From Escherichia coli (lineage in GTDB: Bacteria; Pseudomonadota; Gammaproteobacteria; Enterobacterales; Enterobacteriaceae): a DNA stretch of 64,000 bases. A program made the translations under genes and the position numbers. Every line of letters starts with the position of its first letter. The stretch's first letter is position 1. The notes under the pieces are model-generated. The model worked only from the letters and a program-made list of their open reading frames with translations. It searched no databases and was not told the DNA's origin. The DNA lies in NCBI RefSeq assembly GCF_044324785.1, contig NZ_CP172127.1. One strand, given 5' to 3'. This document shows positions 43,411 to 64,000 of this stretch, piece by piece.

Positions 43411-44186
43411 ACGGCTTCCTCCCCAGCCTGTTGGCAGTCGGCATACAGGTCGGCTACCAGAACTCCCGTGATATAGCGTTTATAGGCCACGCTGCCCCGC
43501 AAATCTTCCTGCGGGAAAATGGCGTTGGCGACAGCCTGTTCAAGTGCATTGCCTTCCAGATTTTGTTTTTCAACATCGTGCAGACGCAGGGCTTTACTGG
43601 CGACGCCATCCAGCGCAATTCGCATACCGTCGTGGTCTGTCATTGCAACGGCTGCCGTCACGACGGTTAAACCTGCCTGAGAACGGCTAATTTTGCGGGT
43701 CGCACAGGTGCGATACGGATCTTTAATGATAATTTCGGTTAGCAGGCGATCGCATGGGCAGGCCAGGTACTCTTCGATTGACAGTGTTTCGCCATTGCCA
43801 AAAACCAGTTCAGCATCCAGTGCCAGCAGGACGGGAAGCAGCACAGACTCTTCCTGCCGGGCGGCGATTTCACCACCAATGGTCGACTGATTACGAACAT
43901 GGCGAGAGTAGACAAAGCCGAGGGCTTCACGCAGTGCTGCAGGAATAAATCGCGCATCACGCAGTGGCTGCAAGCGAGACATTGCGCCAATCCGCAGTGC
44001 ACCGTTATCCCAGTCAACCCAGTCCAGTTCCAGATCCTGTAAGGAAATGGCAATCTTTTTATCGGTACGGGTTGGTGTAGCGTTGAGTTTGCTGCCCCCG
44101 GCGAACCAGACGGCTTCATCCTGGTAGCGGCGCTTCAGTTCCAGCGCCTGTTCGACAGAGTCGGGCCTGAAAAATTGTTCAATCAT
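43407..44186 (-). CDS. ygfM: FAD-binding subunit (CO-dehydrogenase flavoprotein-like) partner of XdhD, 259 aa
   Basis: Full ORF; 4-nt overlap with xdhD start; FAD-binding fold AVWFAGGSKL. Confidence 0.8.
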   Translation of the reverse strand: MIEQFFRPDSVEQALELKRRYQDEAVWFAGGSKLNATPTRTDKKIAISLQDLELDWVDWDNGALRIGAMSRLQPLRDARFIPAALREALGFVYSRHVRNQSTIGGEIAARQEESVLLPVLLALDAELVFGNGETLSIEEYLACPCDRLLTEIIIKDPYRTCATRKISRSQAGLTVVTAAVAMTDHDGMRIALDGVASKALRLHDVEKQNLEGNALEQAVANAIFPQEDLRGSVAYKRYITGVLVADLYADCQQAGEEAV

Positions 44187-44236
44187 CTTCTTTCCTTATT
44201 TAACCCTCTTCCCAGCGGGAAGAGGGTATTTGTCAT

Positions 44237-45565
44237 TTATGCCAACGCATCCATCCGACGCCACATACTGGCAGCGGCTTTTCTGGCTTGCGCATAAATG
44301 GAATCGCAATCGAAGTTAAACTGACGGTCTTCATAGACCATCACGCCATTGACCATCACGCTATGAACGCTGCCTGAGCCCATACCGAAAGCGATATGCC
44401 CGGCGATATTGTCTGCCAGCAGCGGTGTCGGCGAGTTGTAATCGCAAATGGTTAAATCGGCTTTGTAACCGGCTTCCAGAAGGCCAAATTTCGCGCCAAA
44501 GTTGCGGCTCATCAGTTCGTTGCCGTTAGCCAGTGCTTTGGCAAAACTGTCAGGCCACAGCGGACCACCCGCATCGCGATGTTTAAAGAAGGCAAATTTC
44601 ATCTCTTCAAACATGTCCGAACCAATGCCGTCCGTTCCCAACGCCAGATTGCGGATGTCGCTAAGGTGATGGTTGTAGCCGACATGGTTGTTCATGTTTG
44701 AACGGGCGTTATGCACCAGGAACGCATCGCGCTGATTGAGTAGGGCGATGTCATCTTTCGACAAGTACAGCCCATGAGCGACCAGCGTTTTGCTGTCGAT
44801 GAGATCGAATTGCGCCAGTCGTGCCAGCAGGTCTTTGCCGTACCAGTGGTGACTGTAGGAAACGTCATAAAGGTCTTCCGCAGCGTGAATATGCAAACCA
44901 CGACCTGTGGCTTTCACGGCTTCACGCAGCATCTCCAGACCGGCATCCGGCACGGTAAACGGCGCGTGAGCGCCGATATGTGCTTCCACCAGATACGGCT
45001 CGGTTGCTGCTTTCTTCGCCTCATCAATCTGACGGGCGAAGCGGATGTTTTCTTCTACACCTTCCTGCAACTCTTTGATGCCGTTGTTACGGTCAGTAGT
45101 TTCAAAACAGGTCATCGCGCGCAGGCCAACTTTTAAAAATGCGTTGCGCAATGTGGAGAGCGACCCGCCGATATACGCCGGAGAGGCATGGTGATCGATA
45201 ACCGATGTACATCCGCTCTTAATTGCTTCCAGGGTACAAATCAGTCCGCTGTAATAGAGCGACTCTTCATCAAGGGCGCGATCGAGTCGCCACCAGAGAT
45301 TTTTCAGCGTTGAGATGAAATCCGGGCAGGGGGCGATGTTTGCCATAATTCCGCGGGACAGCCCCGAGTAAAAATGGTTGTGCGAGCAGACAATTCCCGG
45401 CATCACAATCCGACCATGCATCTCTTTGTAGCTGGCATCGGGGTAGCGTTGCGTCAGGGCATCGCCGATAGCGACAATCACATCATTTTCGATGGCGATA
45501 TCAACGCCTTCCTGCACTTTCGCCGGGTGTAACTGCACTGCGGTGACATTCTTCAGAATCAACAT
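44237..45565 (-). CDS. ssnA: amidohydrolase-superfamily hydrolase (chlorohydrolase/aminohydrolase-like), 442 aa
   Basis: Metal-binding HxH (VCSHNHFYSG); full ORF. Confidence 0.85.
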   Translation of the reverse strand: MLILKNVTAVQLHPAKVQEGVDIAIENDVIVAIGDALTQRYPDASYKEMHGRIVMPGIVCSHNHFYSGLSRGIMANIAPCPDFISTLKNLWWRLDRALDEESLYYSGLICTLEAIKSGCTSVIDHHASPAYIGGSLSTLRNAFLKVGLRAMTCFETTDRNNGIKELQEGVEENIRFARQIDEAKKAATEPYLVEAHIGAHAPFTVPDAGLEMLREAVKATGRGLHIHAAEDLYDVSYSHHWYGKDLLARLAQFDLIDSKTLVAHGLYLSKDDIALLNQRDAFLVHNARSNMNNHVGYNHHLSDIRNLALGTDGIGSDMFEEMKFAFFKHRDAGGPLWPDSFAKALANGNELMSRNFGAKFGLLEAGYKADLTICDYNSPTPLLADNIAGHIAFGMGSGSVHSVMVNGVMVYEDRQFNFDCDSIYAQARKAAASMWRRMDALA

Positions 45566-45567
45566 GA

Positions 45568-48500
45568 TTACACCTCCACGCGGCCCAGCAGATAATGATG
45601 ATGCTGGTGGACATGGCTAATGATGCGGCACATATCGTTCAGCTCCGGTGGTACGTTGTTGAACTGACCTTCGCTGTCGATGTTTAACACCCAGCTTTGG
45701 TTATTCAGACGTACTCGTACCCGGCAATCTTCCACAAGGAAGCCTGGGTTGCTGCTGTTATCAAAGTCTTGCGACAGGCTGAAGACGGTGATTTTGTCTT
45801 TGTACGGTTTACCGTTCCACGGACAGAACTGAGCGCAGTTGCCGCATTCGTTACAGTAAGCGTCGAGGTGCAGCGTCTGGAAACGGTTCTGGAAGCCAGG
45901 GACCGCAATGGAGACGTTGGCGCGGTTCGGGCAGACATCCACACACTTGCTGCAAACGTAGTTACATTCAAGGCAGCGAGCAGCTTCCTGCGCGACAAAC
46001 GCATCACGATCGTCACTGTTCACCAGCGTGATAGAGATATCGCCTTTACGTTGATAGATTTCCGCCGGATTGACGTTGTTCCAGTATTTATCGTTCTGGT
46101 GGGAACGGATATTTTCCCGACTAAGGATGGCATCGGTCGCCCGACGCGCGGTTCCGACAGCAGCGACAATGGAGGATGGTCCGCGCTGTACGTCGCCGAT
46201 CATAAAGACGTCAGTCAGACGAGTTTCGCCATTATGGTCGACGTCTGGCCAGCCGTTTTTGTCCAGCGGCACGCCCATCGCATTCAGGGCTTCAGTATCC
46301 TGCTGTTCACCAATGGCGGTGATCAGGCTGTCTACATGCAGTGTTACTGTTTCGTTGGTTTCAACCGGACGGCGACGACCTTTCTCATCAGGTTCGCCAA
46401 GCGACATAACGCGCAAGGTTAAGGTGCCATCAGCATCGAAACGTTCCGGATTATTCAGGAAACGGAACTCCACGCCGTCGTGCAACGCTTCTTCATACTC
46501 TTCGCGCCATGCTGGCATCTCTTGCAGTGAACGACGGTAAACGACCGTTGCTTTTTCTACGCCTGGAACGCGTAACGCCGCACGAGCGCAGTCCATTGCC
46601 GTGTTACCCGCCCCGACAACGACCACATGTTTGCCCAGCTTGAGCGCTGTGCCCTTGTTGTATTCACGCAGGAAGGGGAGTGATTTCCAGACATTTTGGT
46701 TGTCGCCCGCCAGTTTCACACCGCTATTTTTATCAGTGCCGGTGGCAATCAGAACATAGTGGAAGCCCTGATTTTTTAACTGTTCAACGGTCAAATCGGG
46801 TGAGCAGCCATACTCAAATTTCACGCCGTGAGCGGCAACAAAATCGATATCGTGCTGAATTAACTCTGCAGGAATACGGAACTGAGGAATGATATTTTTC
46901 ACCACGCCGCCCGCATTGGCTTCGCGTTCAAACAGCGTAACCGGATGGCCCGCTCTGGCAAGGAAGTAACCTGCTGCCAGACCCGCCGGACCTGCACCAA
47001 TCACGGCAACCGGATGGCGTGAACCAGAACCGGCTGGTTTGTGCCAGCGTTGCTTATATTCATCCCAACCTTTTTCCAGCGCGACTTTTTTCAGTTCGCG
47101 GATATTCAGCGCACTGTCGTAATCCAGGCGGGTACAGTTGTATTGGCACTGGTGATCGCAAATATGACCGGTAATGGCGGGCAGGGCGTTGCGTTGGTAG
47201 ATGAGTTCCAGTGCGTCGGCATAGCGGTGTTCGCCAAGCAGACGGATGTATTCCGGAATATCCTGTTTAATGGCGCAAGCAGTAACGCACGGTGCAACGT
47301 AGCAGTCGGTCAGCGGCAGGTCTTCTGCCACTTCAATACGCTCTTCTGGCTTCCAGTGTTTCTGAGTGTATTCCATGGTTAACGCGTCTGCTGCCAGTTT
47401 GTTCAGTCGTTCGACGTCAACATGGTCAAGCCCCCAGGCGTCGGAGCCTTCCAGCTCGCGCATGCAGGCACTTAAGCGCAGATAGCCGCCAGGTTTCAGC
47501 AGGTCGGTTGCCATCGTGATAGGGCGAATACCAGTATCAAAAATATCGCGGATAGTCAGCTGACTGGCACCACCGGAATAAGAAATGGGCAGTTTGCCGT
47601 CAAAGGCGCGAGAGAGAACTGCTGCAACATTGATGGAGAGCGGGAACAGCGCACGGCCTGACATATACATCTCTTCACCAGGCAGTGCGCCTTTATTGTT
47701 GATGGTGCCGAGAGTGTTAGTCAGTTTTACGCCAAAGCCGAGTGATTTTTCTTTTGCCAGTGCCATCAGACGTTCCAGCATTTCCAGTGCTTGCGTCAGC
47801 TTGAGGTCGTGATCAAATGACTCTTCTTTTAAGCCTATGTAACCGAAACCGCAGACATCGAGGATCTCACGAACACGCGCGTACCCCAGTAAGGTCGGGT
47901 TGAGTTTCACAAAGGTATTGAGCCCTTTTTCTTCCAGCATGTAGCGGCAAATGGCTTCGATTTCATGCGGAGGACAGCCGTGCATGGTGGAGAGGGTGAC
48001 GCCCTGCACCATGCTGGTGGGGATGCGAGCGGGTAAGGCTTGCAAGCTTTCGCGTTTTTCCTGCAATCCGTGGCGGGCTAAAAATGCGTCATCCTGGAGT
48101 AATTTATTCAGCGTATCGCGATATTGAGCGAATTTCGGATGGTCAGATGCGTCCATCATATTGTCGATGAACTGTTGCATCGGCGGTTGCTTAATACCTT
48201 CGAGGTTGTAACCGACGCTCATATTAAAGATGAACGATTTACCGGAATCAGAAGGCTGGAACATCGCTTCGAGAAGGTGCAGGGCAAACCAGGCTTTGAG
48301 GTATTCATCCCAGGCTTTAAGCAGGGTAAATTCGGTGGACCATTCGGTGTTAAAGCACTCGTCTTCGGCATCAATACAGGGCTTTTCCAGCTCCAGGCGG
48401 TCAAGAATTTGGACGGTTTTTAGTTCGATGAAGCGTCCGCCAGTCAGCCAGGAAGTGACAATATTTTGCGCGAGCTGCGTGTGCGGGCCAGCGGCAGGGC

Positions 48501-48666
48501 CGACGGGAGTGGCACAGGTTTCACCGAAGACGCTAACAGTTTTACCTTTTACGGGTGAGTAAAACTGTTGCTCGGGAATACCAAAGATTGAGCGTTGTTG
48601 TTGGTATTCATCAAATATGCGCGTCAAAAGTTCCTCAAACGGAATGGGACGCATAATATCCCCCAT
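45568..48666 (-). CDS. ygfK: large Fe-S flavoprotein oxidoreductase (GltD/dihydropyrimidine-dehydrogenase-like with 4Fe-4S clusters), 1032 aa
   Basis: Dinucleotide fingerprints [28 protein letters not shown] and VVVVGAGNTAMDCARAAL; ferredoxin motifs CLECNYVCSKCVDVCP and CNECGNCAQFCP; AGGAG RBS. Confidence 0.85.
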   Translation of the reverse strand: MGDIMRPIPFEELLTRIFDEYQQQRSIFGIPEQQFYSPVKGKTVSVFGETCATPVGPAAGPHTQLAQNIVTSWLTGGRFIELKTVQILDRLELEKPCIDAEDECFNTEWSTEFTLLKAWDEYLKAWFALHLLEAMFQPSDSGKSFIFNMSVGYNLEGIKQPPMQQFIDNMMDASDHPKFAQYRDTLNKLLQDDAFLARHGLQEKRESLQALPARIPTSMVQGVTLSTMHGCPPHEIEAICRYMLEEKGLNTFVKLNPTLLGYARVREILDVCGFGYIGLKEESFDHDLKLTQALEMLERLMALAKEKSLGFGVKLTNTLGTINNKGALPGEEMYMSGRALFPLSINVAAVLSRAFDGKLPISYSGGASQLTIRDIFDTGIRPITMATDLLKPGGYLRLSACMRELEGSDAWGLDHVDVERLNKLAADALTMEYTQKHWKPEERIEVAEDLPLTDCYVAPCVTACAIKQDIPEYIRLLGEHRYADALELIYQRNALPAITGHICDHQCQYNCTRLDYDSALNIRELKKVALEKGWDEYKQRWHKPAGSGSRHPVAVIGAGPAGLAAGYFLARAGHPVTLFEREANAGGVVKNIIPQFRIPAELIQHDIDFVAAHGVKFEYGCSPDLTVEQLKNQGFHYVLIATGTDKNSGVKLAGDNQNVWKSLPFLREYNKGTALKLGKHVVVVGAGNTAMDCARAALRVPGVEKATVVYRRSLQEMPAWREEYEEALHDGVEFRFLNNPERFDADGTLTLRVMSLGEPDEKGRRRPVETNETVTLHVDSLITAIGEQQDTEALNAMGVPLDKNGWPDVDHNGETRLTDVFMIGDVQRGPSSIVAAVGTARRATDAILSRENIRSHQNDKYWNNVNPAEIYQRKGDISITLVNSDDRDAFVAQEAARCLECNYVCSKCVDVCPNRANVSIAVPGFQNRFQTLHLDAYCNECGNCAQFCPWNGKPYKDKITVFSLSQDFDNSSNPGFLVEDCRVRVRLNNQSWVLNIDSEGQFNNVPPELNDMCRIISHVHQHHHYLLGRVEV

Positions 48667-48748
48667 AACCCTCTCCTTAGCTTATACAGATATCATTGAG
48701 TGACCGGTGTTGAGAAATCCGGTGGTTTAGGGGGATAGAGCAACAATC

Positions 48749-48764
48749 GCACCACTCTTGCCAG
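48749..48764 (-). promoter_or_regulatory. candidate sigma54 promoter upstream of ygfK (CTGGCAAG-N4-GTGC)
   Basis: Minus-strand CTGGCAAGAGTGGTGCG read by eye; GG/GC spacing correct; ~85 nt upstream of ygfK ATG. Confidence 0.35.
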
Positions 48765-48817
48765 GTTTGGCGGGAAATATAAAAAAATGTGAGGCGGCTC
48801 GAAACTTAGGAGCTTTT

Positions 48818-48833
48818 TGTGAATGAACTCACA
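48818..48833. promoter_or_regulatory. perfect CRP core site TGTGA-N6-TCACA
   Basis: tttTGTGAatgaacTCACAgg read directly in ygfK upstream region. Confidence 0.5.
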
Positions 48834-48987
48834 GGTGCCAAATGAGAATTAAAATCACTCCTGAAAATTATTATTGCCAGCCCATTTATCACTTTTTCTC
48901 TTTTCTCAAAATCAGTGATTCCTTATCATTATGATAAAGAGAACTGGAAGGGTTAAATATTTGAACGCAATCGTTTAACTACGTTTT

Positions 48988-49566
48988 CTAAATTTCAGTA
49001 TACCTTTTTTTCGCTGTAATAAAGTCGTCCGGAGTATCAATATCTAAAATTATTTCTGCATTTTCTATTTCGACGGAATAATGTTCTCCCATAAGGAGTG
49101 CCTGACGCATATTGGTGATATTGGGACGCTGGATTGCCTGCATCAGGCATGGCTTTGACACTAAAATCGGATGGCCGGGAATGCCATTATGGAGTGGCAG
49201 TATTGCGCCATCATTTCGTAACGACCAGATTTTCCTAAAAATATCGATGGTGAGGGTAGGCATGTCACCGTGGGTGAGAAAACAATATTCTGTTTGTACC
49301 GCGGGTACTGCGGCCTTTACTGATGTTAGTAAACCCTGTGCATAATCTGGGTTATGGATAATAGTGATATTGCTCTGGTTCGCATAACGCTTGTGCAGTT
49401 CATTACCACGATAGCCGGTGACTAAAATAATTCGGCTACAAAACTGCAACGCATTTTTGATACTTGTATCAAGAATTGTTCCCTGTTGCCAGGGTAACAT
49501 CATTTTCCATTGCCCCATTCTTGATGATAATCCGGCAGCGGTAATTATACAGTCGATGGCTGACAT
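48988..49566 (-). CDS. mocA: molybdenum cofactor cytidylyltransferase (MobA-like nucleotidyltransferase), 192 aa
   Basis: N-terminal ITAAGLSSRMG nucleotidyltransferase motif; full ORF. Confidence 0.85.
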   Translation of the reverse strand: MSAIDCIITAAGLSSRMGQWKMMLPWQQGTILDTSIKNALQFCSRIILVTGYRGNELHKRYANQSNITIIHNPDYAQGLLTSVKAAVPAVQTEYCFLTHGDMPTLTIDIFRKIWSLRNDGAILPLHNGIPGHPILVSKPCLMQAIQRPNITNMRQALLMGEHYSVEIENAEIILDIDTPDDFITAKKRYTEI

Positions 49567-49668
49567 AGTGGTTCCATTATTTATAGGGGCTAATAACGCC
49601 TGATAATTGCGTTACTTCCTGATGGATTAAGTTGGGGATAATTTATCCCAGAGAGGTCATAAAGACTC

Positions 49669-50439
49669 GTGAAAAGTATAGTTGACCCATCGGCATTATT
49701 CATTGATTTAGGCGCGCAGAAACGTCCCACTGTGATTTCTGTTGTTGGGGCTGGGGGGAAAACCAGCTTGCTTTTTTGGCTGGCAGAACTGATCCAGGCT
49801 AGCGGCAGGCGTGTGTTAATCACTACGACGACACATATGTTTATGCCAACGTCTCACTGGCCCGTGGTTTTCTGTCGTGATCCCGCCATGCTTCCTCATG
49901 CGTCTCTTACATCCCCCATTTCATTTTGTTTTCACAGCTGGAAAGCGAACCAGGGAAAAGTGCAGGGATTTATGCCAGAAGCGATTGATGCACTGGTGCA
50001 ACGACCAGAGTGTGACGTAATTCTCATTGAGGCAGATGGCTCGCGTGGAATGCCGTTAAAAGCGCCTGATGAGCACGAACCTTGCATACCCAAAAGCAGT
50101 TGCTGCGTGATTGCTGTGATGGGAGGACATATTTTGGGCGCGAAAGTGAGCACAGAAAATGTCCATCGCTGGTCGCAGTTTGCTGATATTACCGGGTTAA
50201 CACCTGATGCAACCTTGCAACTGAGCGATCTCGTTGCGCTGGTTCGCCACCCTCAGGGCGCATTTAAAAACGTACCGCAAGGTTGTCGGCGAGTCTGGTT
50301 CATTAACCGTTTTTCTCAATGTGAGAATGCGATTGCGCAAAGCGAGCTCCTTCAACCGCTGCAACAACACGACGTAGAGGCAATCTGGCTGGGCGATATA
50401 CAAGAACATCCTGCAATCGCGCGCAGATTTGTGAATTAG
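49669..50439 (+). CDS. yqeC: P-loop protein YqeC (selenium-dependent molybdenum hydroxylase accessory family), 256 aa
   Basis: GTG start; Walker-A-like VVGAGGKTSLL. Confidence 0.8.
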   Translation: MKSIVDPSALFIDLGAQKRPTVISVVGAGGKTSLLFWLAELIQASGRRVLITTTTHMFMPTSHWPVVFCRDPAMLPHASLTSPISFCFHSWKANQGKVQGFMPEAIDALVQRPECDVILIEADGSRGMPLKAPDEHEPCIPKSSCCVIAVMGGHILGAKVSTENVHRWSQFADITGLTPDATLQLSDLVALVRHPQGAFKNVPQGCRRVWFINRFSQCENAIAQSELLQPLQQHDVEAIWLGDIQEHPAIARRFVN

Positions 50440-50486
50440 CGGCCCGGGTATTCCGGGTTACTGAAAGGATATCCATTGAGGTTGGT

Positions 50487-52112
50487 ATGAATATTTTCAC
50501 AGAGGCTGCAAAACTCGAAGAGCAAAATTGTCCGTTTGCGATGGCGCAAATTGTTGATAGCCGAGGCTCGACTCCCCGCCATTCTGCACAAATGTTAGTG
50601 CGCGCCGATGGCTCTATCGTCGGTACAATTGGTGGCGGAATGGTTGAGCGGAAGGTGATTGAAGAGTCGCTTCAGGCATTGCAGGAGCGTAAGCCGCGAT
50701 TATTCCATGGACGTATGGCTCGTAACGGTGCGGATGCTGTCGGGTCAGATTGTGGAGGTGCAATGTCAGTATTTATCAGCGTCCATGGTATGCGTCCACG
50801 TCTGGTGTTGATTGGCGCGGGGCATGTCAACCGGGCGATAGCCCAGAGTGCGGCGCTATTAGGATTTGATATTGCCGTTGCTGATATTTATCGCGAAAGC
50901 CTCAATCCTGAACTATTCCCACCATCAACCACGCTTCTCCATGCTGAGTCGTTTGGTGCAGCAGTGGAAGCACTGGATATTCGCCCTGATAATTTTGTCC
51001 TGATTGCCACGAATAATCAGGATCGTGAAGCCCTCGACAAACTCATTGAACAGCCCATTGCATGGTTGGGGTTGCTGGCAAGTCGTCGCAAGGTTCAGCT
51101 TTTCCTGCGTCAATTGCGTGAGAAAGGCGTGGCTGAAGAACATATTGCCCGTTTACATGCGCCCGTTGGTTACAACATAGGTGCGGAAACGCCGCAGGAG
51201 ATCGCCATCAGCGTGCTGGCAGAAATATTACAGGTGAAAAATAACGCGCCGGGTGGGCTGATGATGAAACCTTCTCATCCTTCCGGACACCAGCTGGTGG
51301 TGATTCGCGGTGCGGGAGATATCGCCAGTGGTGTGGCGCTACGTCTGTATCATGCGGGTTTTAAAGTGATCATGCTGGAAGTGGAAAAACCGACAGTGAT
51401 TCGTTGTACCGTGGCGTTTGCCCAGGCCGTGTTCGATGGCGAAATGACGGTCGAAGGCGTCACTGCCCGCCTGGCAACCAGCTCTGCGGAAGCGATGAAA
51501 CTTACCGAACGCGGATTCATCCCTGTGATGGTAGATCCCGCCTGTTCATTGCTTGATGAACTGAAACCGCTTTGCGTGGTGGACGCTATTCTGGCGAAAC
51601 AGAATTTGGGTACGCGGGCAGATATGGCACCAGTAACAATCGCGCTTGGGCCGGGCTTTACTGCTGGGAAGGATTGCCATGCGGTAATTGAAACAAATCG
51701 CGGGCACTGGCTCGGTCAGGTGATTTACTCTGGTTGTGCGCAGGAGAATACCGGTGTTCCCGGCAATATTATGGGGCATACCACCCGACGGGTGATCCGT
51801 GCTCCTGCTGCAGGCATTATGCGATCCAACGTGAAATTAGGCGATCTGGTGAAAGAGGGCGATGTGATTGCCTGGATTGGTGAGCATGAAATTAAAGCAC
51901 CGTTGACGGGGATGGTGCGTGGCTTGTTGAACGACGGACTGGCGGTGGTCGGTGGTTTTAAAATTGGTGATATCGATCCACGTGGTGAAACGGCTGATTT
52001 CACCAGCGTTTCTGATAAAGCCCGGGCAATTGGCGGCGGCGTACTTGAGGCGTTAATGATGTTGATGCATCAGGGCGTGAAAGCGACAAAAGAAGTGCTG
52101 GAAGTGGCTTAA
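50487..52112 (+). CDS. yqeB: XdhC/CoxI-family maturation protein with two Rossmann-like domains, 541 aa
   Basis: LVLIGAGHVNRAIA and VVIRGAGDIASGVA dinucleotide-like motifs; full ORF. Confidence 0.8.
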   Translation: MNIFTEAAKLEEQNCPFAMAQIVDSRGSTPRHSAQMLVRADGSIVGTIGGGMVERKVIEESLQALQERKPRLFHGRMARNGADAVGSDCGGAMSVFISVHGMRPRLVLIGAGHVNRAIAQSAALLGFDIAVADIYRESLNPELFPPSTTLLHAESFGAAVEALDIRPDNFVLIATNNQDREALDKLIEQPIAWLGLLASRRKVQLFLRQLREKGVAEEHIARLHAPVGYNIGAETPQEIAISVLAEILQVKNNAPGGLMMKPSHPSGHQLVVIRGAGDIASGVALRLYHAGFKVIMLEVEKPTVIRCTVAFAQAVFDGEMTVEGVTARLATSSAEAMKLTERGFIPVMVDPACSLLDELKPLCVVDAILAKQNLGTRADMAPVTIALGPGFTAGKDCHAVIETNRGHWLGQVIYSGCAQENTGVPGNIMGHTTRRVIRAPAAGIMRSNVKLGDLVKEGDVIAWIGEHEIKAPLTGMVRGLLNDGLAVVGGFKIGDIDPRGETADFTSVSDKARAIGGGVLEALMMLMHQGVKATKEVLEVA

Positions 52113-52120
52113 ATGAAAAT

Positions 52121-52146
52121 GGCCGGATGGTATTACCCACCCGGCC
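52121..52146. terminator. hairpin between convergent yqeB and yqeA
   Basis: GGCCGG...CCGGCC inverted repeat flanked by A/T. Confidence 0.45.
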
Positions 52147-52152
52147 TTTAAA

Positions 52153-53085
52153 TTACTGACAAATCACCGTTCCGGTTTTGCCTTCAATCCCTTCTTTCGC
52201 TTTGCTCAATACGGTAATCAGTGCTTCACGACCTGCGCGAGAGCGAGCAAACGAGGCGGCAGCTTCCACTTTAGGCAGCATAGAACCTTTCGCAAAATGA
52301 CCTTCTTCGATAAAGCGTTCAGCATCACTTAATGACAGGCGATCGAGCCACTGTTCATTCTCTTTACCGAAGTTAATGGCCACTTTTTCTACCGCAGTCA
52401 GAATGATCAGCATATCGGCATCAATCATCTCTGCTAAACGGGCGCTGGCCCAGTCTTTATCAATAACCGCGCTGGCACCACGCAGATGGTTACCTTCACG
52501 AATAACAGGAATACCACCACCGCCAACGGTGATCACTACCTGGCCTGCATCTACCAGAGCTTTAACCGTTTCTTTTTCAATGATATCAACCGGTTTTGGC
52601 GAGGCAACAACACGGCGATAGCCGCGACCAGCATCTTCTTTCAGAGTGTAACCCTGTTTTGTCAGTTGCTCTGCTTCCTGCTCGGTAAAGAACGAACCGA
52701 TCGGCTTGGTCGGGTTGAGGAATGCCGGATCGTTAGCATCGACTTCGACCTGGGTAACCAGCGTTGCTACAGGTTTATTAATGCCACGAGAAAGCAGTTC
52801 TTCTCTTAAGGCGTTTTGTAGATCGTAACCAATATAGCCCTGGCTTAAGGCAACACAGACAGACATCGGCAGCATTGGCGAGTGCGCTTCAGTTTTTGCG
52901 GCAGCTTCAAAGGCCTGGTTAATCATGCCCACCTGTGGCCCGTTACCATGAGTGACGATGACCTCATGTCCCTGGGCAATTAAATCAACAATTGCCTGAG
53001 AAGTAATTTTTACCGCTTTCATTTGTCCGGCCAGGTCGTCGCCCAGCGCATTCCCGCCCAGGGCGAGAACAATTTTCTTACTCAT
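52153..53085 (-). CDS. yqeA: carbamate kinase-like protein, 310 aa
   Basis: Amino-acid-kinase family N-terminus MSKKIVLALGGNALG; full ORF. Confidence 0.85.
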   Translation of the reverse strand: MSKKIVLALGGNALGDDLAGQMKAVKITSQAIVDLIAQGHEVIVTHGNGPQVGMINQAFEAAAKTEAHSPMLPMSVCVALSQGYIGYDLQNALREELLSRGINKPVATLVTQVEVDANDPAFLNPTKPIGSFFTEQEAEQLTKQGYTLKEDAGRGYRRVVASPKPVDIIEKETVKALVDAGQVVITVGGGGIPVIREGNHLRGASAVIDKDWASARLAEMIDADMLIILTAVEKVAINFGKENEQWLDRLSLSDAERFIEEGHFAKGSMLPKVEAAASFARSRAGREALITVLSKAKEGIEGKTGTVICQ

Positions 53086-53132
53086 TTTTCCTCACTCATC
53101 ATTCTTGATTGTGTATAGATCCCTGGCAGTGG

Positions 53133-54518
53133 TTAGAGCACGGGAGGGACAAACGGTTTGCGTCGCAGGAATCGACCTCGCCCGGCTTTGCCTGTAAAGG
53201 TGCCGTCACAGAAAATCGTTTCACCACGGGATAAGGTTCTGACAATCGCGCCCTGACAGGTAAAACCCTCCCATGGCGAATAGTCAGCGTTGTCGTGGAG
53301 ATGGCGATGCTGAATTTGTTGGCTCTGACGTGGGTCGATAATCACCACGTCGCCATCGGAACCGGGCGCTAATAATCCTTTTTGCGGCCACAGGCCAAAC
53401 AGCCTGGCGGGCATCGCGCTGGTTAATTCAACAAAACGTTCCGGTGTTATACGTCCCGTCATTACGCCACTGGAAAACAGTAACTGCATGCGGTTTTCCA
53501 CACCGGGTAAGCCATTTGGGCAGCGACTGAAATCGCCTTTAGAAATTTGCAGGCGTTGAGCCATTGAGAACGTGCAGTGATCGGTCGCCACCACGTCAAT
53601 CGCACCATCGCTGATGCCACACCACAGTTTGTCCTGCTCGCGTACGTTACGCAGCGGTGGGCTAAGAATGAACTTCATGCCATCTTCTGTATCGTAACTG
53701 CGTTCGTCCAACAGGAGATATTGTGGGCAGGTTTCAACCCAGACTGGCTGGTGATTCGCACGGGCAAGACGCAGATAATCCAGACCTAAGCCGTTAGACA
53801 GGTGCACGATATAGAGCGGGGCGTTACCGGCAATTTGTGCCAGGTTAATCATGCGGGCGATGGCTTCCGCTTCGCATTCCAGAGGGCGACTCAAGGCGTG
53901 ATAGCGCGGCGCGGTTAACCCTGCGGCGATAAACTCCGCCCGCTTGCTGGCGATAGCTGCATCATTTTCCGGGTGCACGGTGGTCAGCGCGCCGGACTCA
54001 TGCAAGCGGCGTAACGCCTGCAAAACCTCGTCATCGTTGAGTTTGTATTGATAGGTTAAATAGAGTTTAAAACTGCTCAGTCCTTCTTCGACCATCATCG
54101 GAATTTCGTCGAGGATGGCGTGATTAATGTGCTGGATCACACCGTGAAAGCTGTAGTCGATGACCGCCTTATGGGCGGCATAGCCACGATAAACCTCCAG
54201 TTGATGGCGTAACCGACAGCCGTTTGGGCCAAATCCCATATGGTCAATAATGGTTGTTGTACCGCCACACGCAGCTGCGCGGGTACCGGTAAAAAAATCA
54301 TCACAACTGCGCGCGATGCCGACATCAATATTGAAATGCGTATGGACATCCACGCCGCCAGGGAAAACGTAACAGCCAGTGGCATCAATTTCTTCATACG
54401 GGAGCTGCGGCGAAATATTGTTGCCCAACTGGCGAACAATCCCGCTTTCAATCAGCAAATCCTGTTTGGCTTGTCCATCTGCGTTAACGACAGTGCCGTT
54501 TTTGATCAATACGCGCAT
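53133..54518 (-). CDS. hyuA: cyclic amidohydrolase (D-hydantoinase/dihydropyrimidinase family), 461 aa
   Basis: ORF 53133..54530 trimmed to MRVLIKNGTVVNADG with GGAG RBS; metal-binding GGVDVHTHF. Confidence 0.85.
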   Translation of the reverse strand: MRVLIKNGTVVNADGQAKQDLLIESGIVRQLGNNISPQLPYEEIDATGCYVFPGGVDVHTHFNIDVGIARSCDDFFTGTRAAACGGTTTIIDHMGFGPNGCRLRHQLEVYRGYAAHKAVIDYSFHGVIQHINHAILDEIPMMVEEGLSSFKLYLTYQYKLNDDEVLQALRRLHESGALTTVHPENDAAIASKRAEFIAAGLTAPRYHALSRPLECEAEAIARMINLAQIAGNAPLYIVHLSNGLGLDYLRLARANHQPVWVETCPQYLLLDERSYDTEDGMKFILSPPLRNVREQDKLWCGISDGAIDVVATDHCTFSMAQRLQISKGDFSRCPNGLPGVENRMQLLFSSGVMTGRITPERFVELTSAMPARLFGLWPQKGLLAPGSDGDVVIIDPRQSQQIQHRHLHDNADYSPWEGFTCQGAIVRTLSRGETIFCDGTFTGKAGRGRFLRRKPFVPPVL

Positions 54519-54528
54519 AGCAAACTCC

Positions 54529-54553
54529 AAAAACCCTCCGGCGAACCGGAGGG
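54529..54553 (-). terminator. terminator-like hairpin (CCCTCCGG-ttcg-CCGGAGGG + UUUUU) between ygeY and hyuA, U-tract abutting the hyuA RBS
   Basis: Read directly on minus strand: CCCTCCGGTTCGCCGGAGGGTTTTTGGAGTTTGCTATG. Confidence 0.5.
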
Positions 54554-54570
54554 GAATAAGTGAAGAGTAA

Positions 54571-55782
54571 TTATTCGGTTGCCAGCCAGCTTAACGGGAT
54601 TGCAGCGTACATCGCGGCACAGGTCACCAGGTGAGATTTCCAGGTTTTTTCGTTAGGTGCATGCGCTTCAGGTTCTTTACCCGGGCCAAAGCCGATCACC
54701 GGAATGCCGTGACGGCCCATGATAGATACGCCGTTAGTTGAGAAGGTCCACTTATCAACAACCGGCGCTTTGCCAAACAGCCCTTCGTAGGCATTCACCA
54801 GTGCTTTAACGGTGAAGTGATCTTCTTCCACTTTCCAGGTCGGGAAGTAGCATTCGGTTGGGTAAACCAGGCCAGTCCAGGACGGACGGTCGTAGTTGTA
54901 CATAGAAACAACCGCGTTAGCTTTCTGTACTGCAGGCAGGGCGCGGATTTCGTCCAGCGCGCCTTCCCAGGTTTCGCCCCAGGTCAGACGGCGGTCAATA
55001 GAGACGGCGCAGCTATCTGCTACTGCGCAACGGCTTGGGGATGTGAAGAAGATTTCAGAAACGGTGAGGGTGCCTTTGCCGAGGAATTCGTCATAACCCA
55101 GACGTTGGGAGAGTTCTTGTAATTCGCCAAGAATCGGACCCATTTTGAAAATGGCGTTGTCACCGCGTTCTGGTGCAGAACCGTGGCAGCTAACACCCTG
55201 AACATCAATACGAATTTCCATACGACCGCGTTGACCACGGTATACCTGGCAATCAGTCGGTTCAGTACTGACCACAAATTCCGGGCGAATGCCGGATTGT
55301 TCAATAATGTACTGCCAGCACAGACCGTCGCAGTCTTCTTCCTGCACCGTACCGGTAACCAGCAGGGTATATTCATCTTCCAGACCGAGGTCTTTAATGA
55401 TTTTACCGGCATAAACCATAGAGGCCATGCCGCCTTCCTGGTCGGAAGTACCGCGACCACCGATCAGTTCATCAGTTTCCATGCCTTCGTACGGATCGAA
55501 GTCCCAGTTTTTGATGTTGCCAATGCCGACGGTATCAATATGAGCGTCCATTGCCACCAGACGCGGGCCGTGGCCGATATAACCGAGAACGTTGCCCATC
55601 GGGTCGATTTCAACTTTATCGAAGCCGACTTTTTCCATCTCTTCTTTAATACGATGTACTACGCGTTTTTCATCGCAGCTTTCACTGGGAATAGCAACCA
55701 TATCGCGCAGAAAGCGAGTCATGTCTGCCTGGTAATCTTTTGCTTTTTCAAGAATCAGTTTGAATGGAATATTCTTAGCCAT
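54571..55782 (-). CDS. ygeY: M20-family metallopeptidase/deacylase (ArgE/DapE-like), 403 aa
   Basis: Full ORF; M20 family features (e.g. HIDTVG). Confidence 0.85.
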
Positions 55783-55839
55783 TATTTTTCTCCAGATTTT
55801 TTACTCCCCGTTTTGCGGGGAGCAGTTCCAATAGGGTGA

Positions 55840-57036
55840 TTAAGGTGCTACAGCGTGTTTGCCTTCCCAGACAACTTCGCGGTAGTGCTTCACGTCTGTG
55901 TCGCCTTCAGTGCTGATAACCAGCACTACGGCATCTTTGTTCAGCGCCAGTTTTTCCATCAGGCTTTGACGTTGCGGGTGATAATGAACCGCTGCGAGAA
56001 CGCCCAAACCGACAGCGCCAGATTCACCGGAGATGATGCGTGGATCGTTGCCGTACGGATTACCCAGTACGCGCATACCTAATGCGGCAACGCTGTCCTG
56101 GCAGGAGATGAATTGGGTGGCGCAGTTACGTAGGATTTCCCAGCCCAGCGGGTTAGGTTCGCCACAGGCCAGGCCTGCCATGATGGTGGCCATATCACCG
56201 CCAACGTTGACGATGTCGCCTTTGACGCCAGAGCGATAAATACAGTCAGCTTTGTCAGGTTCAACAATAATGCTGTGCAGATTTTGCGGGCTGTAGACGT
56301 CGACCAGATAACCCAGCACACCACCAGCCATTGCACCGACACCGGCTTGCAGCAGAACGTGCGTCGGGGTTACGCCCATTTCACGCATTTGCTCGACGGC
56401 TTCATCTGCCAGTGTTGCGTAGCCTTGCATGATCCAGGTTGGGATTTTGGTGTAACCTTCCCAGGCGGTATCTTGCACCACTTCCCAGCCGTGCTGCTGC
56501 GCGTGTTGCATGGTCAGGCGAACGGTATCGTCATAGTTCATATCCGTGACGATGCACTCGGCACCGAGGTTCAGAATGGCGTCAACGCGTTCCTGAGCAG
56601 AACCTTTCGGCATGTAAATCACCGCATTCTGTCCGAGTTGCTGTGCTGCCCACGCCACACCGCGCCCGTGGTTGCCGTCGGTGGTGGTCGCGAAAGTCAT
56701 TTTTTCGCCGATGGCATTTTTCAGGTGCTCAAATGACAGCGTTTCGATATCAAGATGATATTTTTCGCACAATAATTGAGCGATGGCGTATGCACCGCCG
56801 AGCATTTTGAAGGCGTTCAGACCGAATCGTTTTGATTCGTCTTTGACGAGAATTTTCTTCACACCAAAAAGGTTTGCGAGATCGTCCAGCGCACAAAGCG
56901 GTGTTGGGCGATAACCAGCAATTTTCTGGTGGAACTGGCGCGCCAGTTTGGCCTGGCTTTGCGAAAAGAGCGGTGATGTTTCGCCGTTGAAAAATTTGTT
57001 ATCGGCGATATCAATCTTCAATGAGAAAACGGACAT
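55840..57036 (-). CDS. ygeX: PLP-dependent 2,3-diaminopropionate ammonia-lyase, 398 aa
   Basis: Fold-type-II PLP motif around SKRFGLNAFKMLGG; full ORF; synonym dpaL. Confidence 0.85.
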   Translation of the reverse strand: MSVFSLKIDIADNKFFNGETSPLFSQSQAKLARQFHQKIAGYRPTPLCALDDLANLFGVKKILVKDESKRFGLNAFKMLGGAYAIAQLLCEKYHLDIETLSFEHLKNAIGEKMTFATTTDGNHGRGVAWAAQQLGQNAVIYMPKGSAQERVDAILNLGAECIVTDMNYDDTVRLTMQHAQQHGWEVVQDTAWEGYTKIPTWIMQGYATLADEAVEQMREMGVTPTHVLLQAGVGAMAGGVLGYLVDVYSPQNLHSIIVEPDKADCIYRSGVKGDIVNVGGDMATIMAGLACGEPNPLGWEILRNCATQFISCQDSVAALGMRVLGNPYGNDPRIISGESGAVGLGVLAAVHYHPQRQSLMEKLALNKDAVVLVISTEGDTDVKHYREVVWEGKHAVAP

Positions 57037-57093
57037 ATCCTATCCTTTTGGCCTCTGGAAATAGAGGGCCGACCAGCTGATCGGCCCGAGGGG

Positions 57094-58284
57094 TTATTTC
57101 ACGCGTTCTTGCGCTTCTTTCAGCAGTTGCTCGAGCAGTGCACCTGGTTTGGCGTATTTACGGGACAGGATCATCGCGGCGATGATATAAGGCTTCCAGC
57201 TGGCTTCTTTGTAGGTCGCGATACGGTATTTTTCGAATACGCCTTCAGTCACTTCACCTTCTTTGCAGGATACGCCGCTGATATCAGCTGGCAGGCAGTG
57301 CATGTACAGGGCTTCGCCATCACGGGTCAGTTCCATCATCTCTTCGGTGCAATGCCAGTCTTTGTGCTGAGCGTTCTGCGCCAGACACTGTTTTTCCAGT
57401 GCTTTTAAGCCTTCGTGATCGTTAGCGCGCAGCAATTCAGTACGCTCTTCCATCACTTTGTAAGGTGCCCATGACTTCGGATAAACGATGTCTGCGTCTT
57501 TGAAGGCTTCTTCCATGCTGGTGACCTGACGGAAGCTACCGCCGGAGGCTTTAGCATTGTTTTTAGCGACTTCAACGACATCCGGGATCAGGTCGTAGCC
57601 TTCCGGATGGGCCAGGGTGACATCCATACCGAAGCGAGTCATCAGACCGATGATGCCTTGTGGTACAGAGAGCGGTTTGCCATAGCTTGGGGAGTAGGCC
57701 CAGGTCATGGCGATTTTTTTACCTTTCAGGTTTTCCAGTGAACCAAAGTGTTCACGTAACCATGCGAGGTCAGCCATTGACTGAGTCGGGTGGTCAATAT
57801 CGCATTGCAGGTTCACTAAAGCCGGACGCTGCGGCAGTACGCCCTGCTTGTAGCCGTCATCAAGTGCAGCGCCAACTTCACGCATATAAGCGTTGCCTGC
57901 GCCCAGATACATATCGTCACGAATACCGATGGCATCGGCGCAGAAGGAGATCATATTGGCGGTTTCACGCACGGTTTCGCCGTGAGCGATTTGTGATTTG
58001 CCTTCGTCGAGATCTTGCTGTGCAAGGCCGAGCAGGTTAAGCGCGGAAGCATAAGAGAAGCGGGTACGGGTGGAGTTGTCGCGGAATACGGAAATACCTA
58101 ATCCACTATTAAAGACTTTGGTTGAGATGTTTTCAGCACGCAGTGCTTTTAATGCTGCGGCAACGTCCAGTACTTGTTTCAGTTCATCTGGCGTCTGTTC
58201 CCACGTTAACAAAAAATCTTTCTCGTGAAGGTGAGAGGTCAGCGAATTGATATCCTTAATCAGCTCATTAACAGTTTTCATCAT
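57094..58284 (-). CDS. ygeW: carbamoyltransferase (ATCase/OTCase family) of unknown substrate, 396 aa
   Basis: Carbamoyl-phosphate-binding STRTR motif and HCLP motif both present. Confidence 0.85.
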   Translation of the reverse strand: MMKTVNELIKDINSLTSHLHEKDFLLTWEQTPDELKQVLDVAAALKALRAENISTKVFNSGLGISVFRDNSTRTRFSYASALNLLGLAQQDLDEGKSQIAHGETVRETANMISFCADAIGIRDDMYLGAGNAYMREVGAALDDGYKQGVLPQRPALVNLQCDIDHPTQSMADLAWLREHFGSLENLKGKKIAMTWAYSPSYGKPLSVPQGIIGLMTRFGMDVTLAHPEGYDLIPDVVEVAKNNAKASGGSFRQVTSMEEAFKDADIVYPKSWAPYKVMEERTELLRANDHEGLKALEKQCLAQNAQHKDWHCTEEMMELTRDGEALYMHCLPADISGVSCKEGEVTEGVFEKYRIATYKEASWKPYIIAAMILSRKYAKPGALLEQLLKEAQERVK

Positions 58285-58760
58285 AAAGTCCCGGTAGTGG
58301 AATGACAGGCAAAGAGGTTTATTTCACTGTGACTTGCCAAAAGTGATTGGTCTTTTCACAGCTATACCTGGGACTAACAATAACTATGCCAGAATTATCC
58401 AAGCGGCTGCAAAAGACTAATTTGACGGGTAATGTGTGGGGTTGATCACAAATTGATGCCAGCTTCTGGTTGTTTGTAAAATACGAAAACGTTTGGCTTT
58501 TTTTATCGCGTTATTTATTTGCTGCTAAGTATCAGAAATAAGATAAAGGGGCAGGTTATCCCTCGTCAGTTTGATAAACTCACCGCCGTAATTCTCATAT
58601 TGATATAGAAATGTGATATCTCTTCCATAATTTCATTAGAAAGTGATAAAAATCTTATGTTTTTATCAAAGCCAATTTCGTCTGAGTTAATATCATCATG
58701 ATCTGTGAACCATCAACGTCTTCAATGATCGACTTTTAAGTAAGTCTGGAAGGTAAAGCT

Positions 58761-61943: not shown

Positions 61944-64000
61944 TCAAATCAATCCTGCCAGATGGAACTCTTCATATAACCGTTTTGGCGTCAGCGGCAG
62001 TGTATTGATTGCAACACCGGTAGCCATCTTCACCGCGTTACGAATAGCAGCGGCAACAGGAATTATGGGTGGCTCACCCAGTGACTTATGTCCGTATGCG
62101 GATTGCGGCTCATTGATTTCGACGAACGCGCTTTCCAGTTGTGGCAGATCCGGCATGGTCGGCATTTTGTAATCCAGCAGATTGGGGTTACGGACCACGC
62201 CGCTTTTCGCATCAATGATCATCTCTTCAAATAGCGCCCAGCCAATGCCCATTCCCATTCCGCCGTGTACCTGACCTTCTGCCAGTAGCGGATTAAGAAT
62301 ATGGCCCGAATCATGAACGTTGAGGATGCGGTTGATGGTGACTTTGCACAGCGCAATATCGATCGTCAGATCAACAAAGGTACAGCCAAATGCCGGTGGG
62401 TTAGTGGTGGTTTTGATGGAGCTTTCAGCAGAGAGCTGCCCGCCGCGTTCAGGGTGGTAGAAAGCGTCCATCGCCAAATCTTTTAACGACATTAACGGCT
62501 CTTCCGGTCGTTCAATCAGCACGATATGGCCTTTTATCAGGGTCAGATTCATCGCTGACTGATGTAGCATGACTGCGGCGTGAGCGATGATTTTCTCTTT
62601 TAATAACAGTGCCGCACTGCGCAGCGCAGGCGCGGCAACATAGCTCTGGCGTGAGGCAAATGCGCCGGGATCGAACGGCGTAACGTCGGTATCTTGTGTT
62701 GAAATAACGCGAACGTCGCTGACCGGAACCCCCACGGTTTCTGCCACCATTTGCGAGAAGACAGTGTCGGCACCCTGACCGATTTCTGTCGCGCCGCTTT
62801 GCACGTTGATGGTTCCATCCTGATTCATCAACAGGCGCGCGCCTGCTATTTCTACGCCGACAGGCCAGGTGTTAGAGGTGTAGCTAAAACAGGCGACGCC
62901 AACGCCGCGGCGTAAATTGCCTTGCTGGTTCTGGCACTCTGCACGGCGTTTTTCCCATTCAAAGATTTTCCGGCCTTTTTCAAGACACTCCGGCAACCCT
63001 GCGCTGTAAATACGTTTGCCTGTGAGCGGATTAGCATCTCCTTCGCGGGCGGCGTTGCGTAAACGAATTTCAACAGGATCAATACCTAACGCTGTCGCGG
63101 CGTCATCAAGCATAGACTCAACGGCAAATACGACTTGTGGCGCGCCATAACCACGCATCGCACCAGCCGAGGGGAGGTTGGTATAGCAGGTCTTTGAACT
63201 GTAAGCGTAGGCACAACGAGGATAAAGGTAAGCGACTTTATTCCCCCCCGCAGAAGCGATGGAGTGCCCGTGAGATGCATAAGCGCCGGTGTTAGACAGA
63301 ACATCCAGACTATAACCTTTCAATGTTCCGTCGCGGTTCACGCCCATTTGCCCGTCAATAGTGAAAGCGTGGCGGGTTCGGGTTGCGAGGAAACATTCTT
63401 CACGACTAAGGGAAACTTTCACCGGAATGCCGCCAAGCTTGCTGGTCAGGAATGCCGCCATTGGCTCTTCCAGAACATCCTGTTTATTACCAAAACCGCC
63501 ACCGACAAACGGTTTGATAACTCGTACGCATGACCAGGGAATATCCAGCGCCTGACCAACGACGCGGCGAACAATGTGCGGGATCTGGGTGCTGGAAACG
63601 ATGGTAATTCGAGAGTCATCCTCCATCCATGCCAGCGATGTCACGCTTTCCATGTGACAATGTTGAATGACCGGCGTCTGATAGTGCCCCTGTACCTGGT
63701 AGTCGGCGGCATCGATTGTTTGTTGGACATTACCCGTCGACATCGTGCTTTGTTTTAGTAAATTGCCGCCGTTATGGATTGGTGCAGCGTCATCTGCCAG
63801 CGCCGCTTCTGGCGTGGTGATAACGGGTAATTCTTGCCACTCAATGCTGACCAATTGCGCCGCTTTTTCTGCCGTGAGTTCATCACGGGCCACGACGATG
63901 GCAACGGCGTCACCATGATGACGAACATGGCGAGTTAGCAGTGCGCGATCGGCGGTATCGCGCTTGTTTTCGTCAAGTGTCCAGGCATGCCCAGCTGTAG
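61944..64000 (-). CDS. xdhA: xanthine dehydrogenase molybdopterin-binding subunit; 3-prime ~685 codons only, the start lies beyond the window end
   Basis: Frame stays open upstream of the ORF-track start through to position 64000; Mo-hydroxylase family sequence. Confidence 0.85.
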   Translation of the reverse strand, partial: TAGHAWTLDENKRDTADRALLTRHVRHHGDAVAIVVARDELTAEKAAQLVSIEWQELPVITTPEAALADDAAPIHNGGNLLKQSTMSTGNVQQTIDAADYQVQGHYQTPVIQHCHMESVTSLAWMEDDSRITIVSSTQIPHIVRRVVGQALDIPWSCVRVIKPFVGGGFGNKQDVLEEPMAAFLTSKLGGIPVKVSLSREECFLATRTRHAFTIDGQMGVNRDGTLKGYSLDVLSNTGAYASHGHSIASAGGNKVAYLYPRCAYAYSSKTCYTNLPSAGAMRGYGAPQVVFAVESMLDDAATALGIDPVEIRLRNAAREGDANPLTGKRIYSAGLPECLEKGRKIFEWEKRRAECQNQQGNLRRGVGVACFSYTSNTWPVGVEIAGARLLMNQDGTINVQSGATEIGQGADTVFSQMVAETVGVPVSDVRVISTQDTDVTPFDPGAFASRQSYVAAPALRSAALLLKEKIIAHAAVMLHQSAMNLTLIKGHIVLIERPEEPLMSLKDLAMDAFYHPERGGQLSAESSIKTTTNPPAFGCTFVDLTIDIALCKVTINRILNVHDSGHILNPLLAEGQVHGGMGMGIGWALFEEMIIDAKSGVVRNPNLLDYKMPTMPDLPQLESAFVEINEPQSAYGHKSLGEPPIIPVAAAIRNAVKMATGVAINTLPLTPKRLYEEFHLAGLI

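Follow-up and report, generated by a model that had tools for sequence, protein, structure and literature searches.

Background

Chaperones of the XdhC family bind the molybdenum cofactor (Moco), which receives its terminal ligand while bound to XdhC and before insertion into the enzyme. In Rhodobacter capsulatus this ligand is sulfur, delivered as a persulfide by the cysteine desulfurase NifS4. A further family, TIGR03309, has been found only in selD-positive genomes, where it clusters with molybdenum hydroxylases and is frequently fused to XdhC-like domains (Haft & Self 2008, PMC2276186). Its presence marks where genes for selenium-dependent molybdenum hydroxylases lie, and TIGR03172 (YqeC) and TIGR03310 (YgfJ/MocA) were put forward as additional accessory families (PMC2276186); later surveys treated SelD, YqeB and YqeC as the signature of a 'Se-cofactor trait' (Peng et al. 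2016, PMC5029168). Here we analyze the genes mocA, yqeC and yqeB in a 64,000-nucleotide stretch of Escherichia coli DNA (RefSeq assembly GCF_044324785.1, contig NZ_CP172127.1), hereafter the window. An earlier note on this DNA, made without database searches, had named yqeB and yqeC as markers of labile-selenium molybdenum hydroxylases, and the surveys cited above have indeed published them as such.

Experiments in several organisms bear on the same association. A yqeB deletion in Clostridioides difficile reproduces, on both xanthine and urate, the phenotype of selD mutants (PMC11448449). The Clostridium sporogenes orthologue of XdhD, 2,8-dioxopurine dehydrogenase (DOPDH), is inactive if purified from a selD mutant, and YqeBC and SelD are present in every strain carrying the urate cluster (bioRxiv 2025.04.24.650524). 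The E. coli enzyme XdhD purifies together with YgfM and carries out NADH-driven reduction of urate to 2,8-dioxopurine, and urate builds up in a strain deleted for xdhD (PMC12507026). Growth of E. coli on urate required the addition of micromolar molybdenum and selenium (bioRxiv 2022.12.12.520169). YqeB is the only XdhC-like protein open to XdhD and XdhABC, which were suggested to share it (Neumann & Leimkuhler, PMC2997495).

A role of the trio in a selenium cofactor is therefore already known: it was hypothesized by Haft & Self (2008), is carried in RefSeq names and has been partly confirmed by experiment. What the present analysis adds are the fusion architectures of the three proteins, the gene contexts of those fusions, the fold relatives of YqeC and the Foldseek relatives of the C-terminal half of YqeB. 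We consider it likely that the trio is accessory machinery preparing the molybdenum cofactor that is used by xanthine-oxidase-family hydroxylases encoded around it, including the installation of selenium.

Results

Family membership of the three proteins

Three intact open reading frames (ORFs) in the ORF list of the window fill positions 48988-52112, from the mocA stop to the yqeB stop. All three products clearly exceeded the curated cut-offs of their NCBIfam models: MocA reached 211 bits on the equivalog model TIGR03310 (cut-off 186.45), YqeC 239 bits on TIGR03172 (PF19842; cut-off 73) and residues 271-526 of YqeB 417 bits on TIGR03309 (cut-off 220). ORFs, model scores and RefSeq names agree on the identities and the divergent layout that the earlier note had given. 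The RefSeq annotation uses identical gene names, and its products are already called Mo/Se cofactor maturation proteins. Of 5426 complete E. coli genomes, 5178 contain a match to the locus DNA, the best of them at 99.5% identity, and mocA, yqeC and yqeB are real conserved genes rather than chance ORFs.

The same genes occur in the same order in E. coli K-12 (MocA, b2877; YqeC, b2876; YqeB, b2875), with the same intragenic sigma-54 promoter. Identity to K-12 MG1655 was complete for YqeB (541/541, 100%), 98.4% for YqeC (252/256) and 96.9% for MocA (186/192), and the divergent spacer between mocA and yqeC was identical at 102/102 positions. K-12 MocA has been described as transferring a cytidylyl group, specifically from cytidine triphosphate (CTP), to molybdenum-molybdopterin (Mo-MPT) (Neumann et al. 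2009, as cited in PMC2997495). Given its identity and synteny with that characterized enzyme, the window MocA is assigned from sequence as CTP:molybdopterin cytidylyltransferase, which makes the molybdopterin cytosine dinucleotide (MCD) form of the cofactor.

YqeB combines two modules

The earlier note had described YqeB as a two-Rossmann chaperone of the XdhC/CoxI type. Only the N-terminal half is XdhC-like, with the same XdhC_CoxI and XdhC_C domains as R. capsulatus XdhC. The protein scored 110.8 bits on the XdhC equivalog model TIGR02964, below its cut-off of 161.6; with the Pfam domains, this score makes the N-terminal half a relative of the XdhC family rather than an XdhC equivalog. The description fails for the C-terminal half, which is a separate EF2563/TIGR03309 module that mostly stands alone elsewhere. 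Among the top 120 homologue clusters of this module, 103 were stand-alone, 16 were fused to an XdhC-like chaperone as in E. coli and one was fused to MocA. Stand-alone TIGR03309 proteins such as EF2563 and C. difficile YqeB lack the chaperone and match the C-terminal half of E. coli YqeB at 52-60% identity, with the same predicted fold.

Conservation of the C-terminal module was high over long distances, with the 52-60% identity extending from E. coli to Moorella and spirochaetes. An alignment of 25 sequences of the EF2563 family contained 52 invariant columns, and E. coli YqeB matches all of them. Many of the invariant residues are Asp, Arg, Lys or His, and none is Cys. The module is predicted to comprise a Rossmann-like domain and a biotinyl-like barrel. 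Sequence searches gave no solved relative, and no PDB entry matched the fold of the whole domain. When the C-terminal half was compared with AFDB50 using Foldseek, the top 50 matches were family members only. Family matches from Foldseek include proteins of Gottschalkia purinilytica and Clostridium cylindrosporum, which are classic organisms for selenium-dependent xanthine dehydrogenase (XDH).

Two other interpretations of the C-terminal half were considered and rejected. Biotinyl and lipoyl carriers have a barrel-sandwich fold with a modifiable hairpin Lys in an A-M-K-M motif; the YqeB barrel has no conserved Lys of this kind, and a BLASTP comparison with AccB gave no match. A jackhmmer link had suggested that the half is a duplicate of the XdhC Rossmann domain, whereas single-pass phmmer and hhalign recovered only a generic beta-alpha-beta similarity (probability 35%).

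The predicted fold of YqeC has metallocentre-assembly NTPases among its closest matches

The P-loop that the earlier note had seen in YqeC is present, with GAGGKTS as Walker A and ILIEADG as Walker B. Invariant motifs of the family are G-x-G-G-K-T/S, T-T-T, E-A-D-G, K-A-P and E-P, together with one Arg, and E. coli YqeC has every invariant residue (G27, G29, G30, K31, T53-T55, E121, D123, G124, K131, P133, E137, P138 and R167). E-A-D-G is a Walker B of the Glu type, which G3E GTPases also have. No solved structure related to YqeC by sequence was found, and its predicted structure places it in the SIMIBI class of P-loop NTPases with a Glu-type Walker B. The closest fold matches were FtsY, SRP54 and FlhF (scores of 10.4-11.7), followed by UreG (10.1), MinD and ParA (about 10), MeaB-type proteins (9.1), HypB (8.8) and CooC (8.6). 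The SIMIBI/G3E NTPases of metallocentre assembly (UreG, HypB, CooC and MeaB) rank among its nearest folds. MobB was absent from the top 60 fold matches, so the specific structural similarity expected of a MobB-like adaptor was not seen.

The three proteins are fused to one another in other bacteria

Architectures of YqeC were counted over the 150 best cluster representatives. YqeC stood alone in 131 and was fused to a MocA-type transferase in 16, of which 11 had the order YqeC-MocA and 5 the order MocA-YqeC. The other three were a YqeC-MocA-YqeB(C-module) triple fusion (P0197, 777 aa), a YqeC-YqeB(C-module) fusion (P0225) and a short fragment without a detected domain. A MocA-YqeB(C-module) fusion (P0111) and a fusion of a ModE helix-turn-helix domain to YqeC (P0244) also occur. 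The MocA, YqeC and YqeB modules are thus fused in every pairwise combination, in addition to the one triple fusion.

The triple fusion is encoded on a metagenomic contig (L003) in a co-directional run comprising a YedF-like selenium-metabolism protein, a cysteine-desulfurase-like protein, Se_S_carrier, SelD, the fusion and an XDH. The gene for SelD directly adjoins the fused trio, and the XDH that follows it scored 1240 bits on TIGR03311, 'selenium-dependent xanthine dehydrogenase'. At a second locus, the genes for YqeC and the MocA-YqeB fusion come immediately after that for an XdhD-like Fe-S/Mo protein. These contexts independently support a single functional module, made up of the three E. 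coli genes and tied to SelD, whose clients are not restricted to the XdhD type. Directly upstream of the triple-fusion run lies a gene for a 1058-aa protein (L003 773-3949) without a Pfam or NCBIfam match.

Locus layout and neighboring genes

Coordinates of the trio, its domains, its regulatory features and the flanking genes are collected in Table 1. The genes yqeC and yqeB run in the same direction with a gap of 47 bp, and yqeB converges on yqeA across a 40-bp spacer (52113-52152). Flanking genes are as the earlier note had described, with the xdhD/ygfK operon (40540-48666, including ssnA) on one side and the ygeW operon on the other. Past the ygeW operon lie the gene for the sigma-54 activator YgeV and then xdhCBA, while purine and urate transporter genes, guaD and ygfT are located upstream of xdhD. 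These surroundings are the E. coli purine/urate catabolic island, which as a whole encodes a urate-to-pyruvate pathway. YqeB and YqeC co-occur with xanthine-oxidase-family hydroxylases, with xdhD 5.6 kb off and xdhABC also in the window.

Table 1. Features of the mocA-yqeC-yqeB locus and its flanks, in window coordinates.
Feature	Position (nt)	Strand	Remarks
mocA (ygfJ)	48988..49566	-	192 aa, ATG start
mocA/yqeC divergent spacer	49567..49668		102 bp
yqeC	49669..50439	+	256 aa, GTG start
YqeC Walker A, GAGGKTS	49744-49764	+	aa 26-32
YqeC Walker B, ILIEADG			aa 118-124
yqeB	50487..52112	+	541 aa, ATG start
YqeB XdhC_CoxI (Pfam)	50520-50708	+	aa 12-74
YqeB XdhC_C Rossmann (Pfam)	50802-51227	+	aa 106-247
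YqeB EF2563/TIGR03309 module	51297-52064	+	aa 271-526
Sigma-54 promoter within yqeC, driving yqeB	50070..50086	+	TGAGCACGAACCTTGCA; K-12-identical
Sigma-54 promoter of ygfK-ssnA-ygfM-xdhD operon	48739..48754	-	TGGTGCGATTGTTGCT; sequence of K-12 ChIP-seq site OS31 (PMC4591121)
Sigma-70-like hexamer pair facing yqeC	49580-49607	+	consensus-level match only
Terminator-like GC-rich hairpin, yqeB/yqeA spacer	52121..52146	called on -	10 pairs, 8 G-C
xdhD	40540-43410	-	TIGR03313, 2119.9 bits
ygfM	43407-44186	-	TIGR03312, 488 bits
ygfK	45568-48666	-	same flank as ssnA, ygfM and xdhD
yqeA (arcC), hyuA, ygeY, ygeX (dpaL), ygeW	52153-58284	-	other flank
xdhB and xdhC	60579-61933		family assignment
xdhA	61944..64000	-	family assignment; runs off window end

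Base composition varied across the region. The mocA gene is AT-rich (GC 0.423; GC at third codon positions 0.415), as are the spacers flanking it (0.386 and 0.392; 48667-49668 in all), compared with 0.517 for the window. Neighboring genes are far less AT-rich, and MocA differs more from its K-12 counterpart than YqeC and YqeB do from theirs. Apart from a few substitutions, K-12 differs from the window by a yqeB-yqeA insert of ~180 bp of the repetitive extragenic palindromic (REP) type, which is absent from the window. Many other E. coli share an insert of this size, which contains REP-like sequence and has a copy of the terminator hairpin, GGCCGGATGGTATTACCC(A/C)CCCGGCC, at either end (L002 3714-3932; L007 95-314). 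Positions 52113-52152 of the window represent the uninterrupted site with a single hairpin.

The closest complete genome, strain N3 (99.5% identity), has xdhA annotated as frameshifted (L001 33345-35641). We considered an xdhA pseudogene in the window as well and did not adopt it: the part of xdhA that lies inside the window keeps an open frame and gives no evidence of disruption. Rfam and tRNA scans returned no match inside 48988-52112. Elsewhere in the window, they identified a Sib antitoxin RNA (RF00113, 136.5 bits; 8784-8934, minus strand) and 6S RNA (RF00013, 139.8 bits; 9583-9766, minus strand), both unrelated to the cofactor genes.

Promoters and DNA motifs

The intragenic yqeB promoter of K-12 has been validated by chromatin immunoprecipitation (ChIP), mutagenesis, quantitative reverse-transcription PCR and Western blot (Bonocora et al. 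2015, PMC4591121), and YqeB protein became undetectable once this promoter was lost (PMC4591121). Its presence inside yqeC partly uncouples yqeB expression from yqeC and ties yqeB to the sigma-54-controlled catabolic operons on both flanks. ChIP-seq has mapped sigma-54 promoters before xdhA, ygeW, ygfK and ygfT (Bonocora et al., PMC4591121), and that of ygfK falls within the 321-bp AT-rich spacer downstream of mocA. A generic sigma-54 pattern was not enriched in the window (45 matches vs 44 expected), and only literature-validated sites were used. Scans of the region for sigma-70 promoters and terminators likewise gave counts not above shuffled controls.

The intragenic promoter overlies the codons of a conserved YqeC segment, D-E-H-E-P-C-I. 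Its -12 element, TTGCA, uses the TGC codon of Cys139 in H-E-P-C-I-P, a position at which most non-proteobacterial relatives have Val (HEPVIP). A YqeC homologue of 50% identity (L008, nt 670-686) retains a near-identical site, TGAGCATGAACCTTGCA.

Two other short motifs recur near these promoters. The inverted repeat TTMTCA-N3-TGAKAA, allowing up to one mismatch, had 6 matches against 0.43 expected, a contrast inflated by its post hoc derivation. Four of the matches lie in the island (33553-33567, 48923-48937, 50313-50327 and 58592-58606). Three of these precede ChIP-validated sigma-54 promoters, those of ygfT, ygfK and ygeW, by 172-208 bp, and the fourth is inside yqeC, 174 bp ahead of the yqeB start. 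The copy between ygeW and ygeV falls in the longest block of that spacer conserved relative to Trabulsiella. The repeat is a candidate enhancer for YgeV. The exact 10-mer ATGAGAATTA has only 3 copies in the 64 kb (48842-48851, 50018-50027 and 58589-58598), each upstream of one sigma-54 promoter (those of ygfK, intragenic yqeB and ygeW, respectively), and its ygeW copy overlaps the inverted repeat.

Discussion

These results are consistent with a stepwise route of cofactor maturation. MocA would begin by adding cytidine monophosphate to Mo-molybdopterin to yield MCD, a step shown for the K-12 orthologue. Following the R. capsulatus XdhC paradigm, the XdhC-like N-terminal half of YqeB would then bind and protect the cofactor and later insert it into the apo-enzyme. 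The underlying logic is likely the same as for R. capsulatus XdhC, namely to hold Moco, swap its terminal ligand and place it in the enzyme. Comparative genomics, the fusions and clostridial genetics suggest that the EF2563-type C-terminal half would install a labile selenium on molybdenum while the cofactor sits on YqeB, drawing on selenophosphate made by SelD and helped by the putative SIMIBI-class NTPase YqeC. Compared with the XdhC/NifS4 pair, the proposed ligand is thus selenium from selenophosphate instead of sulfur from a persulfide, and the proposed donor is an EF2563 domain instead of a cysteine desulfurase. YqeC may provide gating or hand-off dependent on nucleoside triphosphate (NTP), possibly at the interface of MocA and YqeB. 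Finally, the matured cofactor would pass to XdhD-YgfM, which interconverts urate and 2,8-dioxopurine, and possibly to XdhABC.

The most likely client is XdhD-YgfM, as a urate/2,8-dioxopurine oxidoreductase, and XdhABC may be a second, having no XdhC-type chaperone of its own. XdhD had been named as the candidate in the earlier note, and this choice is strengthened by the reduction of urate by XdhD-YgfM, the selD-dependent C. sporogenes orthologue and the need for molybdenum and selenium on urate. The accompanying statement that the client was not established is now outdated insofar as XdhD-YgfM has been characterized as a urate reductase; it still stands insofar as we found no direct test of selenium, yqeB or yqeC on the E. 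coli enzyme. Labile non-selenocysteine selenium in a client is shown only for the clostridial orthologue, by way of its purification from a selD mutant.

Several observations weigh against installation of selenium by the trio. Neither the alignment of the YqeC family nor the 25-sequence comparison of the YqeB C-terminal half contains an invariant Cys as a perselenide carrier, which argues against a perselenide relay resembling the persulfide of NifS4. The guanine-specificity motif NKxD occurs in 61 of 145 YqeC relatives (~42%) and is replaced by NRFS in E. coli, so that of the G3E GTPase hallmarks YqeC has the Glu-type Walker B and neither NKxD nor an invariant Cys/His. The selD gene is outside the 64-kb window; E. 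coli carries it elsewhere on its chromosome. Deletion of yqeC in C. difficile had no visible phenotype (PMC11448449). The literature searched contained no selenium measurement on E. coli XdhD or on any other E. coli molybdenum hydroxylase, and no assay of XdhD activity in E. coli yqeB, yqeC, mocA or selD mutants. Active XdhD-YgfM has been purified from E. coli in a paper that mentions selenium once in its whole length (PMC12507026).

The lack of selenium measurements and that purification would also fit a set of Moco chaperones of the ordinary sulfur type that serves XdhABC and XdhD, in which case the selenium link is a correlation drawn from anaerobes and plays no part in E. coli, as would the position of YqeB as the sole XdhC-like protein available to both enzymes. 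We find this improbable in view of the micromolar selenium, besides molybdenum, needed for growth on urate, the strict SelD dependence of the orthologous DOPDH, and an EF2563 module that keeps its 52-60% identity across phyla while being confined to selD-positive genomes. Older annotation of ygfK, ygfM and xdhD would instead have the trio mature a selenate reductase rather than a purine-pathway enzyme, and it survives in the RefSeq name of YgfK ('putative selenate reductase subunit') and in NCBIfam models labelled Se_sel_red. This now appears extremely unlikely and has already been largely refuted by the reconstituted pathway: XdhD-YgfM reduces urate, YgfK and SsnA take 2,8-dioxopurine onward, the xdhD deletion strain accumulates urate, and the island accounts for a path from urate to pyruvate.

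A different division of labor concerns YqeC, which could act at the dinucleotide step rather than in selenium chemistry. It would serve MocA as an NTPase adaptor in the way that MobB serves MobA, passing Mo-MPT or MCD between MocA and YqeB and leaving selenium transfer to the C-terminal half of YqeB alone. Molybdopterin guanine dinucleotide is made by the nucleotidyltransferase MobA with the P-loop adaptor MobB; MocA, which has the MobA fold, is similarly partnered by the P-loop NTPase YqeC and often fused to it, and the fusion of YqeC to MocA, in both orders, is the commonest type that we counted (16/150). The silent yqeC deletion in C. difficile agrees with such an adaptor, as yqeC there adjoins mocA-like genes and not yqeB, and so does the internal sigma-54 promoter, which permits yqeB expression without yqeC. 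Fold searches do not specifically liken YqeC to MobB, and its family is tied to YqeB and SelD. We regard the adaptor as a possibility to be kept in mind, though a doubtful one.

Returning to selenium installation by the whole trio, its most specific form would couple selenium insertion to MCD synthesis. MocA, YqeC and YqeB would then act as an assembly line, which in some bacteria is a single polypeptide (the triple fusion), with YqeC gating or activating the cofactor by means of NTP and the Cys-less EF2563 domain exchanging the ligand directly from selenophosphate, with no perselenide. We put this forward tentatively and think it unlikely to hold in every part. If true, it would represent a ligand-exchange chemistry unlike the persulfide route of sulfurated Moco.

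Gut bacteria use the anaerobic urate-degradation pathway to clear about a third of human urate. The first enzyme of the island encoding this pathway in E. coli appears to depend on the least understood biological use of selenium, as a labile ligand on molybdenum. For dissecting the installation of that ligand by YqeB and YqeC, and for engineering uricolytic probiotics that carry a fully matured enzyme, the most tractable host is E. coli.

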